In this document: one piece after another, positions 2,535-10,412 of the stretch | Layout: every line of letters begins with the position of its first letter | Position numbering within the stretch: the first letter of the stretch is position 1 | Virus record (IMG/VR): IMGVR_UViG_2636415959_000001 | Coordinates: 1 to 33,961 of that record | Direction: 5' to 3' (one strand) | Source of the DNA: a virus | Lineage: Duplodnaviria > Heunggongvirae > Uroviricota > Caudoviricetes | DNA: 33,961 nucleotides | The notes under the pieces: model-generated | What the model was told of the DNA's origin: nothing | Databases searched by the model: none | The model's input: only the letters and a program-made list of their open reading frames with translations | Program-made: the position numbers and the translations under genes

Positions 2535-2743
2535 TCCGCTGTCTCCCGCTCAGCTTCGATGATGGCATCTACAGCCATCACCAGGGTTTTGGCGAGGTCG
2601 TCGTAATCCTGCCATGCATCATTGCTAAAAAAATTCGTGAGCATTACTGGCGCTATCTGCACAACGAGGTGCTGGCGATAGGTCATGCCACGGGGAGTAT
2701 CGATGCGCGGGCATGGGTAAGCTGAATGCTGGCCTTTGCTCAT
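2531..2743 (-). CDS. Hypothetical early protein (70 aa)
   Basis: Small ORF with 4-nt overlaps to both neighbours (operon packing). Confidence 0.45.
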   Translation of the reverse strand: MSKGQHSAYPCPRIDTPRGMTYRQHLVVQIAPVMLTNFFSNDAWQDYDDLAKTLVMAVDAIIEAERETAE

Positions 2744-2964
2744 CGTGTCGCCTCTCGTTGAATTGTCTTGTAGGCTCGCAACATATCGCGAGATTTTCCG
2801 GACAAAACCGTCTTCATGAAGAACATTCCACTACGGTTTGCAACTATTCCTGGTGTGCAGAGCAGCGTGGCGTCTACCACGCGGTTATGTTTACGGAACT
2901 CAAACACAGTGCTGGTGATCACGATGTTCGCTACGGCGCCATAGTCCTGATATTCGATTTTCAT
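2740..2964 (-). CDS. Hypothetical early protein (74 aa)
   Basis: Small ORF with 4-nt overlaps to both neighbours. Confidence 0.45.
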   Translation of the reverse strand: MKIEYQDYGAVANIVITSTVFEFRKHNRVVDATLLCTPGIVANRSGMFFMKTVLSGKSRDMLRAYKTIQREATR

Positions 2965-3527
2965 GCCAGATGCTCCTCAATAATTTTGAAAGCATCATCA
3001 CGGCATGGCATCACGACGAACTCAGGATTACCGTATGCAGTGTTGATCACTGGATCGAACTGAATGCGAACCGCTCCAGCCTCACCGGAAGGGCGTAACT
3101 GGATGGGAATAAACTTCCGCTCGCGACCAAACATCTTTTCCGGATAACTGAGGTATTCAGCCCGGATAACCGGATTGATACTGAAATCCACTTTTTTCGG
3201 GATGACGCGTTCCATATCAGGAAAGCGACCATCAACAAGTTTGATGCCGGTGATCGAAATCCGGCGTTCGAATGCGTCGCGGTGAATGGCAAACGCTTCT
3301 TTGTTAAATACCAGTTCAGTGGTTTCCGCTTTCGCCGGAACCGGCCCTTCAAACTGGACGATGATGTTTTTCTTCGTCCGGATGCCGTGCTCCATGCGCA
3401 GGGCTACATGCCCGTTAGTCGACTCGATATATTTCGGAGTGATGTGCACACCATTCAGGTAGTAACGGACATCATTTTTTGCTGCGCATACCAGAGCTGC
3501 GCGAATAAGTTTCGACTGGAGGATCAT
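2961..3527 (-). CDS. Truncated DNA polymerase III beta sliding clamp (DnaN)-like protein
   Basis: 188 aa; motifs ..NDVRYYLNGVHI.., ..KLVDGRFPDMERVIPKK.. and C-terminal ..FVVMPCR.. parallel E. coli DnaN segments (..HQDVRYYLNGMLF.., ..KLVDGRFPDYRRVLPKN.., ..YVVMPMRL) as I recall them; covers roughly clamp domain II and part of III only. Confidence 0.6.
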   Translation of the reverse strand: MILQSKLIRAALVCAAKNDVRYYLNGVHITPKYIESTNGHVALRMEHGIRTKKNIIVQFEGPVPAKAETTELVFNKEAFAIHRDAFERRISITGIKLVDGRFPDMERVIPKKVDFSINPVIRAEYLSYPEKMFGRERKFIPIQLRPSGEAGAVRIQFDPVINTAYGNPEFVVMPCRDDAFKIIEEHLA

Positions 3528-4360
3528 GCTTCCACCTCCACGAAGATCTCTTTCGGATCCTTACGCAGAACGAAGCCACCAAATTCAGGATGTTGCCAGC
3601 GCTTGCGTTTACCGCTTGGGCGAACGGATTCTTCCAGCAGCACCTGAAATGCGTGAATGAACGATTCATGATGTACGCACAGCCCACGAACTCCCGGCAA
3701 CTGTCTGGAGGGCAGGTTTGCGAACTGAACAAGACGACGGCACGAAGGATCGGACAGACTGGTTTCCCATGACACTTTGTGTACCGGAACGAATTCGGCA
3801 TCGGTATTCACGAATTCAGTCGAACTAATGCGCCGTTGTGGTAGAGAGGAAGATACAGGCGAAGCAGCAACCAGGTTGGCGCCACTCACTTCCATTACTG
3901 CTTTCATCGTCGCTGATGCGGTTGCTTCGGCCACAACGCGGGCCAGTGAAAGAATGTCATGGTTCATGCTGATTTCTTGCTGGTGTGATTTAGCTACTGG
4001 CACTTCTTTGCTGTATGTGCCTGTGGTCATGATGGCAGGGAGTACATCCTCACAAACCCAGTCCTGTACGCGTTCAGCCGATGGAAGCTGGCTTCGCAGG
4101 ATAAGGCGGAACAAGTCGGCCTGACCAGCCAGCTGAGTACCGCGCGGTTTTTCACCAAAACCCAATTCTAACGATTCGTTATAATCAAGTTTAATCAACG
4201 CCTTGCAGTGGTCTTTCAGCGCTTTTGCTGGGTTCGTATAACCGAGGGATTTAGCCAGTTCTACAGCGTCAAAGGCTGGTTTTCCCTCATAAAGAATTCC
4301 GCTCATAGAAAAATTGAGTTCTTCTGAGCTAAAGGCCATAAGTTGGTTTTTCATCATCAT
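3524..4360 (-). CDS. BRO-N (KilA-N/Bro N-terminal) domain protein, antirepressor-like
   Basis: 278 aa; N-terminal ..FDAVELAKSLGYTNPAKALKDHC..LFRLILRSQLPSAERVQDWVCEDVLPAI.. fits the BRO-N pattern; C-terminal half unrecognised. Confidence 0.65.
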   Translation of the reverse strand: MMMKNQLMAFSSEELNFSMSGILYEGKPAFDAVELAKSLGYTNPAKALKDHCKALIKLDYNESLELGFGEKPRGTQLAGQADLFRLILRSQLPSAERVQDWVCEDVLPAIMTTGTYSKEVPVAKSHQQEISMNHDILSLARVVAEATASATMKAVMEVSGANLVAASPVSSSLPQRRISSTEFVNTDAEFVPVHKVSWETSLSDPSCRRLVQFANLPSRQLPGVRGLCVHHESFIHAFQVLLEESVRPSGKRKRWQHPEFGGFVLRKDPKEIFVEVEA

Positions 4361-4964: not shown

Positions 4965-5222
4965 TCAGGTGTGTTTATTAATTTCTATGGCATTTTGATA
5001 TGCGTTTTTGATAGTGGAGTCACCCTCATATCTGCTAAGCCCAACCCCAGTTAATCCTTCAAAACGTAATAAAAGCTGATTCATGAAGTGATCATTTACT
5101 TCTACGGTTTCAATTTTGTTATCTGGAAGTTTTATAATCAGTAGGTTTCCACCGGTATTACGCTTGAGTCGCGCTAATGCCGCATTAGCAATCCGGCGTC
5201 GATAGGTATCGATAATATTCAT
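4965..5222 (-). CDS. Hypothetical small protein (85 aa), AT-rich gene
   Basis: ORF in the AT-rich island next to the repressor; basic N-terminus (..YRRRIANAALARLKRN..). Confidence 0.5.
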   Translation of the reverse strand: MNIIDTYRRRIANAALARLKRNTGGNLLIIKLPDNKIETVEVNDHFMNQLLLRFEGLTGVGLSRYEGDSTIKNAYQNAIEINKHT

Positions 5223-5328: not shown

Positions 5329-5715
5329 TCATACGAAGCGCCTCACAGCTAAAGAAGCGACTACCCGACCATGAATTTTGATATCTTTCAGCTCATCGGT
5401 ATTGAGGGTGAAGGTTTCGTAATGATGGTTGTCCGAAATAATTTTCAATGAACCACAAACTAATGGCTCAACTCTCTTAATAAAAAGGCACGGACGGCCA
5501 AATACATCCATCGTATAAACATAAATGCCAGGGGTTAGCGTGCGGCCACCGCAATCAACGAAAGCCACAACCTCACATGGTTCGATGGTCGGCTGCATTG
5601 AGTCTCCCTCCATCATGCAGCTCTTAACACGGTTACCAAAGTCATTAATGTTGTCAGAGCCGAACAGCATTTGAGGTGTTTTAATTGGCTGATTAATTGC
5701 GATAGCGTTTTGCAT
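5329..5715 (-). CDS. Standalone S24 (LexA/CI/UmuD-type) peptidase-domain protein without HTH
   Basis: 128 aa; GDSMQP serine motif and downstream ..LFIKRVE.. lysine motif parallel the C-terminal domain of the adjacent CI (..GNSMEPVI.. / ..GWKRLKI..); no N-terminal DNA-binding domain; RBS GAGGAA 7 nt upstream. Confidence 0.6.
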   Translation of the reverse strand: MQNAIAINQPIKTPQMLFGSDNINDFGNRVKSCMMEGDSMQPTIEPCEVVAFVDCGGRTLTPGIYVYTMDVFGRPCLFIKRVEPLVCGSLKIISDNHHYETFTLNTDELKDIKIHGRVVASLAVRRFV

Positions 5716-6109: not shown

Positions 6110-6160
6110 AATGAGAATACTTAAGTATTAATTGAAGGTCAATGGTATTAATACAAAAAG
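6110..6160. promoter_or_regulatory. Putative left operator/promoter (OL/PL-like) with TAATAC/GTATTA palindromes
   Basis: Perfect palindrome AATACTTAAGTATT (6116-6129) and GTATTAATAC (6145-6154); the same half-site recurs in the cI-cro intergenic region. Confidence 0.4.
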
Positions 6161-6203: not shown

Positions 6204-6244
6204 TAATAAAAAAGCCGACACTATGGTCGGCTTGGTGCTTTTTT
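6204..6244 (-). terminator. Intrinsic terminator downstream of cI
   Basis: Stem GCCGAC / GTCGGC (6214-6219 / 6226-6231), 6-nt loop, followed on the minus strand by a T-run. Confidence 0.55.
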
Positions 6245-6253
6245 GGTAGCGGA

Positions 6254-6946
6254 TCAGAAGATTGTTGATACCCAAAACAGCCTTCCTAAAACCTCAAGAC
6301 TATCCATGTCTACTTCTTCGTCAGGGTATTCATCAGAGTTATAGCTTCTGATTGTCACCTTGTCTGGCCCAGATCTGTAGAGGATTTTTAACCTTTTCCA
6401 TCCACCTTGGTTGATGCCGTAAATTTTACCATCAACGATACGCTTGTCATGGCAGTTTATAGCAACAGTAGAGCCATCAGCGATCACTGGCTCCATGCTA
6501 TTCCCGTGTGCAGCAAAGCATAGAACGCCATCACCATCACTATTAGCTCCCACCTTTCGCAATGTTGCTTTGGAAAACCTAAGTTTTTTGCCATTGTAAT
6601 CATCATTAAGAGCGCTGCCATCTCCACATGCGAACTCGATATCCTTCAAGTAAGGCACCTCTACCTCATCATCCTCAAGCGGCGTTTGCTTATCCCATGG
6701 ATCTATACCAAACATCCTTTGTTCTGGAGTTTTTGCGGGCCCCATGGTGCCTTCACCAGTGCTTAACCATATTGGATCTACATCCAACGCTTTGGCTATA
6801 TCCACGATTTTTCCGCTGGACTGGGCTTTTCCTGAGGTTAGTTTTTGTATGGCCCCCTGGCTTACCCCAACCCTATGCGCTAATTGACTTTGTGTAGCCC
6901 CGGCATGAGCCATCGCCAGCCTTAGTCTTTCTGCAAGTGTGTTCAT
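6254..6946 (-). CDS. cI: CI-like phage repressor (HTH + S24 peptidase)
   Basis: 230 aa; N-terminal HTH (..QSQLAHRVGVSQGAIQKLTSGK..); C-terminal autocleavage domain (GNSMEP, KRLK); divergent from the cro-like gene. Confidence 0.9.
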   Translation of the reverse strand: MNTLAERLRLAMAHAGATQSQLAHRVGVSQGAIQKLTSGKAQSSGKIVDIAKALDVDPIWLSTGEGTMGPAKTPEQRMFGIDPWDKQTPLEDDEVEVPYLKDIEFACGDGSALNDDYNGKKLRFSKATLRKVGANSDGDGVLCFAAHGNSMEPVIADGSTVAINCHDKRIVDGKIYGINQGGWKRLKILYRSGPDKVTIRSYNSDEYPDEEVDMDSLEVLGRLFWVSTIF

Positions 6947-7316: not shown

Positions 7317-7514
7317 ATGTCGCACTCAATCACTACCGAAAACCAAATTAAGCCATTGGATATCGATTATCGCGATCCGCGCGGTGTGATTGTGCATGTC
7401 ACCGGCTGGAATCGGGATAAGCAGCAGGTGTATTTCACCAGGCAGAATTATCCGCATGAGTGCATGCAACCGGTCTGGAAGTTTCAACAGTATTTCAAGA
7501 GGTTAACATCATGA
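7317..7514 (+). CDS. Hypothetical protein (65 aa) between cro and the replication gene
   Basis: ORF starting MSHSITTENQ at 7317; occupies the cII-equivalent position but shows no obvious HTH. Confidence 0.4.
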   Translation: MSHSITTENQIKPLDIDYRDPRGVIVHVTGWNRDKQQVYFTRQNYPHECMQPVWKFQQYFKRLTS

Positions 7515-8434
7515 GCAGCAAACTACAGGGCTATGTCTGGGATGCCTGCGCTGTTTCTGGTGTCAAGGGGACGCGGCTAATGGTTATGGTACGCCTGGCT
7601 GATTATTCCAGTGATGATGGGAAAAGCTATCCTGGCATAAAAACCATTGCCCGCCAACTTGGCGCGGGGGAGAGCACCATACGAACAGCCATTGCTGAAC
7701 TTGAATCAGAGAAATGGCTTCGACGTGAGAATCGCCGGAATGGTAACCGCAATACATCAAATATGTACTTTTTGAATGTCGAAAAACTTGAAGAAATTGC
7801 ACTTCGGGAGAGATCTGCTATTCGTCTGGATCGACGCAAAAACAACCATTTTGACCCGTCAGATTCTGACGTATCGGATTCTGACAAGTCAGATTTTGAC
7901 GCGTCAGAAATGAGTGACTCAAGTGCACTTGACCCGTCAGATTCTGGCAAAAACAACCATTTTGACCCGTCAGATTCTGGGGGACATGATCCACAAGGTT
8001 TAAAACATGATCCACAAGTAAAAGATCATGAACCACAAGAAGTGCGCGCAAAGCGCCAGAAAAAATCTTCTTTCGACCCTGCATGGCTAAAACCTGAAAA
8101 CGTCAGCGCTGAAATCTGGCTGGACTGGATTAAATTTCGCCGGGAGAAGCGTCAACCGCTGACGGAAACAACCTGCGCATACCAGGCTAAGCAGCTTGCA
8201 GGCCATCAGAATGCCGATGAAGTGATCCGACGCTCAATTGCTGGAGGCTGGCAGGGATTGTTCCCGGATCGTGTGCCCAACAAGCCCGCAATGTCACTAG
8301 CTGAAAACGAAACGCTGACCGCAAGTCAACCGCCAGCTGGGTCATGGTGCACACCATCTGGAGATGGAACAGCGGAGGTATTTATCAACCAGGCCGCTAT
8401 CGAGCGCATGAAGCGCGGGAGTTATCGCCCATGA
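7511..8434 (+). CDS. Replication initiation protein (lambda O-like role) with internal iteron-encoded repeats
   Basis: 307 aa from ATG 7511; N-terminal winged-helix-like region; central low-complexity KNNHFDPSDSD repeats encoded by DNA iterons; conserved C-terminal region. Confidence 0.65.
   Translation: MSSKLQGYVWDACAVSGVKGTRLMVMVRLADYSSDDGKSYPGIKTIARQLGAGESTIRTAIAELESEKWLRRENRRNGNRNTSNMYFLNVEKLEEIALRERSAIRLDRRKNNHFDPSDSDVSDSDKSDFDASEMSDSSALDPSDSGKNNHFDPSDSGGHDPQGLKHDPQVKDHEPQEVRAKRQKKSSFDPAWLKPENVSAEIWLDWIKFRREKRQPLTETTCAYQAKQLAGHQNADEVIRRSIAGGWQGLFPDRVPNKPAMSLAENETLTASQPPAGSWCTPSGDGTAEVFINQAAIERMKRGSYRP
7836..8040. repeat. Iteron array (putative replication origin) inside the replication initiator gene
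   Basis: 33-bp direct repeat GCAAAAACAACCATTTTGACCCGTCAGATTCTG at 7836-7868 and 7947-7979; further ~15-bp GTCAGATTCTGAC-like units; CATGATCCACAAG repeats at 7985-8040. Confidence 0.65.
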
Positions 8435-8540
8435 AATCATTCCTCAAGCGTGTGCTGGTGGCTGGATATAATCACGGCGTTCTGAGCGAGGGATTCGTGA
8501 CATGGTGTTTTGTTAAATTTGATTTACGGAGTGAGTGAGC

Positions 8541-10412
8541 ATGACGCCCGCCGAACTTTCAGAAAAATTATGGGACAACGCCGAAAGGGTTGCAAAGTAC
8601 CTGCTGCCAAAAGGTCACCTGGAAGGCAAAGAATGGTGTGTTGGGAATATCAACGGTGACGCCGGAAAGAGCCTTAAAATTAACATCGGTGGCAAAAAAA
8701 CGTGGGCAGACTTCGCCAGCGGCGACAGTGGTGATCTGCTTGATTTGTGGGTGTTGGTACGCAACTGCCAGCTGCATGATGCGATGCGTGAGGCAAAAGA
8801 ATTTCTCGGTCTGAAAGACGACGATCACCATTTCGAGGCGAAGAAAAAAACATTCTCCAGGCCGACGAAGAAGGGCGTGAAAAAAGCGAGCAATTGTTAC
8901 GGTTATCTGGCTTCGCGTGGTATCACCCGAGAGACAGTGGATCTGTTCCGGGTATCTGATGCGGTGGTCTGGTATCACGATGAAAATCGCGAAGTACCCG
9001 CCGTGGCATTCCCGTACATCCGGAACGGCGAACTGCTTCAAGTAAAACGCATCGGTACTGAACGACCAAACGGCAAAAAGATAATTATGGCTGAGGCGGA
9101 TTGCGAGCCATGTCTCTTTGGTTGGCAGGCCCTGGACAAATCCACGCGTCTGGTCGTTCTGTGCGAAGGCGAGATTGATTGTATGACCTTCACGCAGCTT
9201 GGTTACGACGCACTTTCTGTTCCCTTTGGCGGCGGCAAGGGTGCCAAACAGCAGTGGATTGAATATGAGTACCACAATCTGGATCGCTTTCAGGAGATCT
9301 GGCTTTGCCTGGATAACGACGATGTCGGCCGTGAAGCTGCAAAGGAAATTGCCAGACGACTTGGCGAGCATCGCTGCCGCATGGTTGAACTCCCGCACAA
9401 GGATATCAACGATTGCCTGATGAGCGGCATGGACAGTGAGTCCATCCTGGAGCACATGGAACGCGCTAAATTTTTCGATCCAGATGAACTGTGCTCGGCA
9501 GGTGATTTACTTCAGGAAACCATTGAAGCGTTTGAGCATCGCGATGTTGGCTTGTTCACCAGCCCATGGACCTCGCTGAATTACAATTTCAAATTTCGCG
9601 CCGGAGAACTGACGCTGGTAAATGGCGTGAATGGTCACGGCAAGACCGAACTGGTTGGCCATATCGCAGTTGCTGCTATGAATCAGGGGATTCGGACGTG
9701 CATCGCCTCTCTGGAACTGAAGCCAGGGAAAATGTTGGCCCGCCTGACGCGGCAGACTATCTGTACCGCATCACCGAAACGCGAAGAAATCGTTATGACG
9801 AACGAATGGTTCTCCGATCGTCTGTGGGTGTTCAAACTCACCGGCACCGCGAAAGCTGGCCGTCTGCTGGAAATCTTCGCCTATGCCCGGCGTCGGTATG
9901 GAATCGATCTGTTCGTTATCGACAACCTGGCGAAATGCGGGCTCGATGAGGAGGACTACGGCGGACAGAAAGAATTTATCGACACCCTGTGTGACTTCAA
10001 AAACGAACATAACTGTCACGTCCTTCTGGTGACGCACGCCCGCAAAACCAACGAAGCGGCACCGACCGGGAAAATGGACGTCAAAGGCACCGGCGCATTA
10101 ACCGATATGCCTGATAACGTTATGTCCGTCTGGCGCAACATTCCCCGCGAACTGGCACAACGTAAGGCTGAAAAAATGGGATACGAAAGCCTGGATAAGG
10201 ATGAGCAGGCAGCGCTCCAGATGCCAGCTTCAATGATTCGCCTGCTCAAACAACGCGAAGGTGAGGGGTGGGTTGGTGATATTGGCGCAAATTTTGATAC
10301 CCGTTCACACCAGTTTCTGGAAGGAGAAAAACAACCATTTAACTATCTGGTCGGTAAGCCTCAGAGCGAGGTGGATCTTGAATGGGAAGCAGGCAACGTT
10401 ACGAGGTACTGA
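8541..10412 (+). CDS. Bifunctional DNA primase / DnaB-family (SF4) helicase, T7 gp4-like architecture
   Basis: N-terminal primase-like region and Toprim-like motif (..VVLCEGEIDCMTF..); C-terminal Walker A-like GVNGHGKTE and Walker B-like DLFVIDNL; ATG 8541 preferred over GTG 8535. Confidence 0.8.
   Translation: MTPAELSEKLWDNAERVAKYLLPKGHLEGKEWCVGNINGDAGKSLKINIGGKKTWADFASGDSGDLLDLWVLVRNCQLHDAMREAKEFLGLKDDDHHFEAKKKTFSRPTKKGVKKASNCYGYLASRGITRETVDLFRVSDAVVWYHDENREVPAVAFPYIRNGELLQVKRIGTERPNGKKIIMAEADCEPCLFGWQALDKSTRLVVLCEGEIDCMTFTQLGYDALSVPFGGGKGAKQQWIEYEYHNLDRFQEIWLCLDNDDVGREAAKEIARRLGEHRCRMVELPHKDINDCLMSGMDSESILEHMERAKFFDPDELCSAGDLLQETIEAFEHRDVGLFTSPWTSLNYNFKFRAGELTLVNGVNGHGKTELVGHIAVAAMNQGIRTCIASLELKPGKMLARLTRQTICTASPKREEIVMTNEWFSDRLWVFKLTGTAKAGRLLEIFAYARRRYGIDLFVIDNLAKCGLDEEDYGGQKEFIDTLCDFKNEHNCHVLLVTHARKTNEAAPTGKMDVKGTGALTDMPDNVMSVWRNIPRELAQRKAEKMGYESLDKDEQAALQMPASMIRLLKQREGEGWVGDIGANFDTRSHQFLEGEKQPFNYLVGKPQSEVDLEWEAGNVTRY

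Follow-up and report, generated by a model that had tools for sequence, protein, structure and literature searches.

What could a phage do with a sliding clamp that appears to lack the parts needed to close a ring? This question is raised by a gene on the minus strand of the viral record IMGVR_UViG_2636415959_000001 (IMG/VR; Caudoviricetes), which was analysed over its whole length of 33,961 nt (the window). The window is a lambdoid prophage, and the gene, located in its early-left operon, encodes a 188-aa homologue of DnaN, the β clamp of bacterial DNA polymerase III (Pol III), referred to here as the mini-clamp. The single peptide-binding pocket of the β clamp is a hub of bacterial replication, repair and initiation control, as well as an antibiotic target. 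The mini-clamp keeps the segments that carry this pocket and lacks those that close the ring, and it is tentatively proposed to act as a competitor or decoy for the host proteins that dock there.

Relationship to DnaN and architecture of the mini-clamp

The initial annotation had recognised a truncated DnaN homologue in this open reading frame (ORF) from three motifs, all of which are present in the protein: DVRYYLNG (aa 19–26), KLVDGRFPD (aa 96–104) and VVMP (aa 171–174). With the single sequence, Pfam family PF02767 (DNA_pol3_beta_2) is matched at E = 0.0019 (18.9 bits, under its 27-bit gathering cut-off) and TIGR00663 at E = 1.5e-5 (24.2 bits, its threshold of 137.65 bits not being reached), while phmmer against the PDB aligns aa 5–116 with β 136–255 at E = 7e-5 to 2e-4. 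A profile built from 36 family sequences retrieves E. coli β from the PDB at E = 1.7e-23. Formal sequence comparison confirms a similarity to DnaN that is far above chance, although marginal from the single sequence alone.

The structural predictions agree with this assignment. The AlphaFold2 model of the 188-aa protein has a predicted local distance difference test score (pLDDT) of 93.2 and a predicted template modelling score (pTM) of 0.88, and Foldseek comparison of this model with the PDB returns solely β clamps at E ≤ 1e-3. A family member that is only 28% identical gives a model with a pLDDT of 94.0 and the same order of secondary-structure elements, the pTM of the two monomer models being 0.88–0.89. 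The β-clamp fold, built from β-α-β-β-β units, is shown by these models to be confidently predicted for the mini-clamp.

The segments of β represented in the protein were assigned by hidden Markov model (HMM) alignments, by DSSP analysis of the models and by a construct test, in which the family HMM was scored against artificial pieces of E. coli β. The β sequence used for this test has the expected length of 366 aa, and a spot check of six positions gave R152, G157, H175, P242, I272–L273 and M362. The construct joining β 130–254 to 314–366 reached 101.8 bits in a single colinear alignment, compared with 81.1 bits for β 130–294 + 355–366, 73.3 bits for β 130–300 and 68.5 bits for domain II alone. 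Because this construct scores best, the portion that follows the linker (aa 119–177) is assigned to the second half of domain III; the first HMM alignment had placed it on the first half, which was ruled out, the second half being better by approximately 28 bits. As judged from these alignments, the mini-clamp is composed of domain II, the interdomain linker (DGRFPD...RVIP) and the second half of domain III (β ~132–254 + 314–366), in agreement with the earlier description of a protein covering only the middle domain and part of the C-terminal domain of the clamp.

No counterpart was found for domain I (β 1–129) or for β 255–313, which includes I272/L273, the residues whose mutation makes β monomeric (PMC11139829). 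Domain I and β 255–313 together form the head-to-tail dimer interface that closes the ring, and both are gone. Moreover, a short loop (aa 60–68) takes the place of the second channel-lining helix of domain II, with DSSP finding one long helix in this domain in two independent models. Two long helices are present in the models, where two full domains would have four and the whole protomer six. The mini-clamp has lost the segments responsible for ring closure and for lining the DNA channel. Since both halves of the dimer interface are absent, the protein is presumably unable to close a β-type ring, and the initial view that a partial clamp would form no normal ring is consistent with the sequence. 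Its companion suggestion, that the protein might bind the host clamp, finds no support, since domain I and the I272/L273 region, which mediate the β–β contact, are missing parts. The term "truncated" is slightly misleading: this is an old and large family, with strong purifying selection and an architecture of its own, rather than a recent truncation.

The mini-clamp shares with DnaN (E. coli β, PDB 1MMI/2POL; PF00712/PF02767/PF02768; TIGR00663) domain II, the linker and the C-terminal ~53 residues, and the pocket is largely kept. It is shorter (188 vs 366 aa), having neither domain I nor the first half of domain III, and only one of the two channel helices of domain II. It is also basic, not acidic, with an isoelectric point (pI) of 9.2 as against 5.25 in DnaN (family median 8.2, range ~5.6–9.2, with a tenth of the family below 5.6), scores under the curated cut-offs, and is phage-borne, not placed beside dnaA/recF. 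The mini-clamp is a homologue of DnaN in which three defining features of the family are lacking, namely the three-domain layout, the dimer interface and a score above the curated thresholds, and the name "DNA polymerase III subunit beta" is not appropriate for it.

In design, E. coli β* would be its closest known analogue. This protein is reportedly an ultraviolet-inducible 26-kDa product of an internal dnaN start (Skaliter, Paz-Elizur and Livneh, J Biol Chem 1996), and is said to begin at about Met135, to keep a complete domain III and to form a trimeric ring supporting Pol III. Both proteins start at the same domain I/II boundary (aa 5 of the mini-clamp aligns with β K136), lack domain I and keep the pocket. 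Unlike β*, the mini-clamp has also lost β 255–313 and a domain II helix, and it represents a separate gene family and not a product of dnaN.

Conservation of the clamp-binding-motif pocket in the family

Subsites I and II of the clamp-binding-motif (CBM) pocket of β are made up of 18 residues (PMC11139829). These were mapped by aligning the β construct to 158 family sequences with hmmalign, which allowed the 18 pocket columns to be compared with 144 other columns. All 18 residues fall in match columns. The mean conservation of the pocket columns is 0.73 vs 0.37 for the others (Mann-Whitney p = 1e-6), their mean identity to E. coli β is 0.71 vs 0.20 (p = 1e-7), and 11 pocket columns rank among the 22 best conserved in the family. 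At ten positions (R152, L155, T172, G174, H175, P242, Y323, M362, P363 and R365) the β residue is found in 84–100% of the family, and the window protein is itself identical to β at 13 of the 18. In domain II, R21 and L24 of the DVRYYLNG motif correspond to β R152 and L155, and T37, G39 and H40 of the TNGH motif to β T172, G174 and H175. The linker contributes P103, R107 and V108 (β P242, R246 and V247), and the domain III unit contains Y125 (β Y323) and ends in VVMPCR (β V360–R365). Furthermore, Y22/Y23 (β Y153/Y154) are highly conserved in the family. The earlier proposal that the protein might bind clamp-binding proteins gains real, if indirect, support from this mapping, in which all 18 pocket residues are represented and rank as the best conserved in the family.

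The mini-clamp gene is real and under strong purifying selection, as shown by a median dN/dS (ratio of nonsynonymous to synonymous substitution rates) of 0.06 in comparisons with 24 ungapped prophage homologues. When 1.84 billion cluster representatives were searched with the profile, 21,433 proteins were returned at E ≤ 1e-3, a total that likely takes in ordinary DnaN, which the profile also matches; 146 cluster representatives reach E ≤ 1e-30. Most of the best 150 representatives are stand-alone proteins of 170–215 aa with nearly full profile coverage. By tblastn, the family was found in 250 phage records, comprising phages of Salmonella, Escherichia, Klebsiella, Vibrio, Acinetobacter, Proteus, Burkholderia and others. 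The identified hosts are mostly Gamma- and Betaproteobacteria, as are most of the 26 loci obtained by a scan of genome contigs. Many viral models of 163–250 aa, with a TM score of 0.7–0.8 to the query, are found in BFVD (ranks 1–15). They constitute a length class separate from the full-length β clamps of Gordonia, Arthrobacter, Caulobacter and Nodularia phages (340–460 aa; BFVD ranks 17–44), which are likewise phage-borne DnaN homologues but have three domains and presumably form rings. The names given to the family in the records are conflicting ("DNA polymerase III beta subunit", "beta clamp domain protein", "RusA-like Holliday junction resolvase" and "hypothetical"), and literature searches found no functional study of it. 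The family is visible in annotations, while its pocket-only architecture and the implication of that architecture appear to be undescribed.

It is extremely improbable that the gene is a decaying fragment or encodes a RusA-like Holliday junction resolvase. The latter function is suggested by a match to phrog_3007 at 8.6e-64, a PHROG family carrying that label, but Pfam RusA gives no match at E ≤ 10 and the fold is that of a β clamp; the resolvase was ruled out, and the label of PHROG 3007 is an annotation error. Decay could be invoked because some public copies (P0052, P0042, P0060 and P0009) are frameshifted or fused to the downstream gene, the frameshifted ones using an alternative frame that is also visible in the window as ORF 3047–3352 (−). 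These copies are occasional decay or assembly errors and a small minority of a conserved family. A pseudogene is ruled out by the dN/dS value, and the 146 cluster representatives, whose length is mostly conserved, equally argue against a fragment. The alternative raised in the initial annotation, a piece of a larger interrupted gene, was ruled out as well, since the flanking ORFs have no clamp similarity and the relatives stand alone at 170–215 aa. Fels-1 (NC_010391.1, 2523–2864) is a further case of such occasional decay or assembly error: the match there is limited to aa 75–188 and is split across three "hypothetical" coding sequences.

Possible roles of a pocket-only clamp

The reading that we favour, although tentatively, is that the mini-clamp is a pocket-only module which forms no β-type ring and binds the CBMs of host replication and repair proteins as a competitor or decoy. 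It is favoured because the ring interface is lost, the pocket is kept, and the monomeric β variant I272A/L273A binds the clamp-loader subunit δ ~50-fold tighter than the dimer, yet gives no processive synthesis (PMC11139829). After prophage induction, the mini-clamp would be made from the early-left operon and would offer a free, off-DNA copy of the β pocket. This pocket would bind the QL(x)LF-type motifs carried by the usual host clients of the clamp, the candidates being Pol III α and ε, the δ wrench of the clamp loader, Hda, Pol II/IV/V and MutS/MutL. The relevant clients could include the SOS polymerases, by which the clamp is crowded when the prophage is induced. The likeliest consequence would be competition with host β, the mini-clamp acting as a decoy or sponge that disturbs or re-routes clamp-dependent host transactions. 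Other phages are known to manipulate β-clamp interactions, as in the complex of Twort Gp168 with the β clamp (PDB 7EVP) and in the case of Mu MuC (PMC12867686). Gp168 and MuC are ligands of the clamp, whereas the mini-clamp copies its docking site and would act on the clients of the clamp.

The neighbourhood of the gene is relevant to the identity of the ligand. Neighbours were surveyed at 228 loci, grouped into 48 lineages at 50% identity, with a Pfam survey of 125 neighbours. No neighbour family is common to more than 9 of the 48 lineages, so that no conserved phage-encoded partner emerges from the survey, a result that fits a conserved host ligand; taken together with a pocket identical to that of the host, it points in this direction. 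CBMs in the window proteins themselves were considered as pocket ligands and rejected, since CBM-like strings occur in them at chance frequency (4 seen vs ~5 expected). One of these strings, QADLF, belongs to the BRO-N protein encoded upstream (3524–4360, aa 80) and resembles the QADMF motif of Pol III α, but it lies within the folded BRO-N motif. Another, QLLLRF, is found in an 85-aa early-left protein (4965–5222, aa 49), and its Q is not conserved in the homologue shown.

The position of the gene also suggests an accessory role and not a core replisome one: it lies in the early-left region here, and in Escherichia phage rolling (Dhillonvirus; MN850575.1, 25381–26717) it forms a two-gene cassette with Nmad5 between the head and tail genes, distant from the polymerase and the helicase-primase that this phage encodes. 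The ArdA/ArdC-like and methylase neighbours found in other lineages were counted toward the same role.

Several points weigh against the competitor or decoy reading. Five of the 18 pocket residues are changed in the window protein (R176V, L177A, N320R, V344A and M364C). Because the pocket residues also form the conserved core of DnaN proteins in general, fold constraints could account for part of the signal, and the alignment of the family with β was anchored on these same residues. The conservation of the pocket shows selection on those residues, which is indirect evidence for peptide binding. In addition, the C-terminal helix of 11 residues comes right after MPxR (part of pocket subsite II) and could modulate or occlude the pocket; it is limited to the enterobacterial prophage subfamily, since DnaN and most family members stop at MPxR(L), has a gap fraction of 0.6–0.9 in the 158-sequence alignment and is predicted at a lower pLDDT (73–83 for the helix at 179–187). 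The basic pI and the DNA pol A, primase and helicase neighbours of some environmental lineages fit a DNA-bound tether at least as well. Finally, annotation of the portion of the prophage compared with E. coli G3/10 shows no DNA polymerase, and none was identified among the other window ORFs, which were not domain-scanned. The replication of the phage therefore presumably depends on host Pol III and the host clamp, a dependence that sets limits on decoy models. Lambdoid phages in general use the host Pol III holoenzyme for replication, and an indiscriminate block of clamp loading would hurt the replication of the phage itself.

Part of this evidence would suit a ring-less tether or adaptor in the manner of UL42, which we regard as rather unlikely. 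The pocket would hold a CBM-bearing polymerase, either that of the host (Pol III core) or, in lytic relatives, one encoded by the phage, while another surface would bind DNA or a phage replication or recombination protein, allowing loader-independent recruitment or processivity. Herpesvirus factors such as the herpes simplex virus 1 UL42 monomer, the human cytomegalovirus UL44 C-shaped dimer, Kaposi's sarcoma-associated herpesvirus PF-8 and Epstein–Barr virus BMRF1 are comparable viral proteins with a clamp fold and no closed ring, and they bind their polymerase through a cleft equivalent to the peptide-binding site of the clamp. For comparison, the mini-clamp has the predicted clamp fold and lacks the ring interface, while its pI of 9.2 belongs to a family whose values run from ~5.6 to 9.2. 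Unlike the mini-clamp, with which they have no detectable sequence relationship, the herpesvirus factors consist of two full domains, are documented to have a basic face that binds DNA, and are dedicated partners of viral polymerases. The conservation of the pocket supports the tether and the competitor alike, and the shift of the pI toward neutral or basic values favours the tether, although pI is a crude proxy and a tenth of the family is acidic by this measure. Several lineages adjoin genes for DNA pol A, RepB-primase/DUF5906, DUF3987/D5_N primase-helicases or DEAD/SNF2 helicases; however, the gene lies outside the replication module both in this prophage and in Dhillonvirus, and no conserved phage partner was found in the survey. 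Domain II lacks one channel-lining helix and domain III one half, and monomeric β I272A/L273A, which still binds DNA, cannot tether Pol III processively (PMC11139829).

It is quite unlikely that the pocket has been kept for a non-canonical ligand, such as a phage protein (the 74-aa or BRO-N neighbour), a pocket-targeting toxin or defence effector that it would neutralise, or single-stranded DNA, which has reportedly been seen in the β pocket in a clamp–DNA crystal structure. The 4-nt coupling to the neighbouring genes is repeated in 75–79 related prophage loci examined, with a BRO-N/Ant-like cluster at position −1 in 79 of them and the 74-aa gene (phrog_1001) at position +1 in 75, and it is nearly constant in enterobacterial prophage lineages. 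The conservation of Y22/Y23 could also be explained in this way, and extra DnaN copies are drug-resistance decoys in griselimycin producers. However, the association with these neighbours is restricted to 3 related lineages and absent from the other 45 of the 48, and the identity of the pocket residues to host β in very divergent members favours the universal CBM over lineage-specific partners. The chance level of CBM-like motifs in the window argues in the same direction, and a component of a defence system was rejected, as PADLOC gave no matches. A true sliding clamp that encircles DNA through a new oligomeric arrangement is judged very unlikely. Clamp rings with 2 × 3 and 3 × 2 domains are known, β* is reported to act as a trimer, and with approximately three β-α-β-β-β units per protein, a tetramer would arithmetically supply the 12 half-domain units of a ring. 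Many depositors also name the family "DNA polymerase III beta subunit" or processivity factor, but these names are homology transfers and not evidence. Both natural ring-closing elements are missing, two long helices remain of the four expected to line the channel, the model of the monomer is compact and of high confidence, and no clamp-loader gene was seen nearby in any of the lineages surveyed.

Returning to the competitor or decoy, a wider version may possibly apply across many phage lineages, although it is held with less assurance: a pocket-only fragment of the hub would serve as a soluble sponge, or as a loader-independent dock, for every CBM-bearing host protein. If so, host replication, the regulatory inactivation of DnaA (RIDA), translesion synthesis or mismatch repair could be switched off or switched to phage DNA. 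To our knowledge, host takeover by mimicry of a hub docking site has not been described for the β clamp. A natural minimal pocket outside a ring would represent a new phage strategy for manipulating the host replisome, and it would provide a small ring-free scaffold (~180 aa) on which ligands of the pocket could be studied or screened. The assignment would also correct a mis-annotation ("DNA polymerase III beta subunit" or "RusA-like resolvase") that has spread among the records of at least 250 phage genomes carrying the family.

Operon, prophage setting and neighbouring genes

The features of the gene and of its transcription unit are collected in Table 1.

Table 1. Coordinates of the mini-clamp gene, its segments and adjacent features in the window
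Feature	Position	Strand	Basis or remark
Mini-clamp coding sequence, 188 aa, complete, ATG start	2961..3527	-	Identical to WP_047400044.1 of E. coli G3/10
Domain II (aa 1–98; β ~132–237), with DVRYYLNG and TNGH	3234..3527	-	HMM alignments, DSSP
Interdomain linker (aa 99–118; β 238–254), DGRFPDMERVIPKK	3174..3233	-	HMM alignments
Second half of domain III (aa 119–177; β 314–366), one β-α-β-β-β unit	2997..3173	-	Construct test; HMM alignment of 119–180 to 314–366
C-terminal helix (aa 178–188, DAFKIIEEHLA) and stop codon	2961..2996	-	Family-alignment gaps, model
Shine-Dalgarno GGAGG, 7 nt 5' of ATG	3535..3539	-	Plus-strand CCTCC, direct sequence reading
BRO-N/Ant-like gene, 278 aa, upstream	3524..4360	-	Pfam Bro-N 5e-15; PHROG anti-repressor Ant families
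74-aa gene, downstream, phrog_1001, function unassigned	2740..2964	-	ORF list, PHROG
Promoter-like site TTGACC-17-TATTCT, candidate PL-type promoter of the leftward early operon	6114..6142	-	Consensus scan only

The mini-clamp gene shares 4 nt with each of its neighbours, at its start with the stop of the BRO-N gene and at its stop with the start of the 74-aa gene. These three genes belong to a chain of five leftward genes, from 4360 down to 2073 (−), which encode proteins of 278, 188, 74, 70 and 153 aa with 4-nt start/stop overlaps. This arrangement suggests translational coupling along this stretch of the early-left operon. The promoter-like site listed in Table 1 follows a terminator-like hairpin (6212–6233) located just 3' of the cI-like repressor gene; judging from the consensus match and the gene order, it may be the PL-type promoter that drives the operon.

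The identical protein of E. coli G3/10 is named "hypothetical protein" in RefSeq, and the stretch of ~2 kb around the gene is 100% identical in that strain. The gene order in G3/10 is int, xis, several small genes, the mini-clamp, the BRO-N/Ant-like gene and the cI-like repressor, followed by a divergent cro-like gene, an HTH (helix-turn-helix) replication protein, a toprim-domain protein, an antiterminator, lysis genes and terminase. In the window, the replication module (7460–10412, +) comprises an HTH-domain protein and a 625-aa toprim-domain protein.

Across the lineages, the recurrent early-region neighbours of the mini-clamp are DEAD/SNF2 helicases, RepB-primase/DUF5906, DUF3987 and D5_N primase-helicases and DNA pol A, together with ParB-HTH proteins, Dam and MT-A70 methylases, ArdA/ArdC-like proteins and DUF7249. 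In Salmonella phage Akira, the mini-clamp comes after EaC and a ParB-HTH protein. As for Nmad5, the partner of the mini-clamp in the cassette of phage rolling, it has been described that point mutants in this gene let Dhillonviruses escape Tmn defence, and that the gene is uncloneable and apparently toxic (PMC11846954).

Two further observations concern the early-left operon of the window. A 128-aa protein (5329–5715, −) consists of an S24 (LexA/CI-type) peptidase domain only, with no HTH detected, and is separate from the full-length cI-like repressor encoded at 6254–6946. At the end of the coupled chain, the 153-aa ORF (2073–2534, −) is intact, although RefSeq marks just 2073–2243 as a partial "ATPase" pseudogene, and homologues of this ORF are found downstream of the mini-clamp in 48 related loci.

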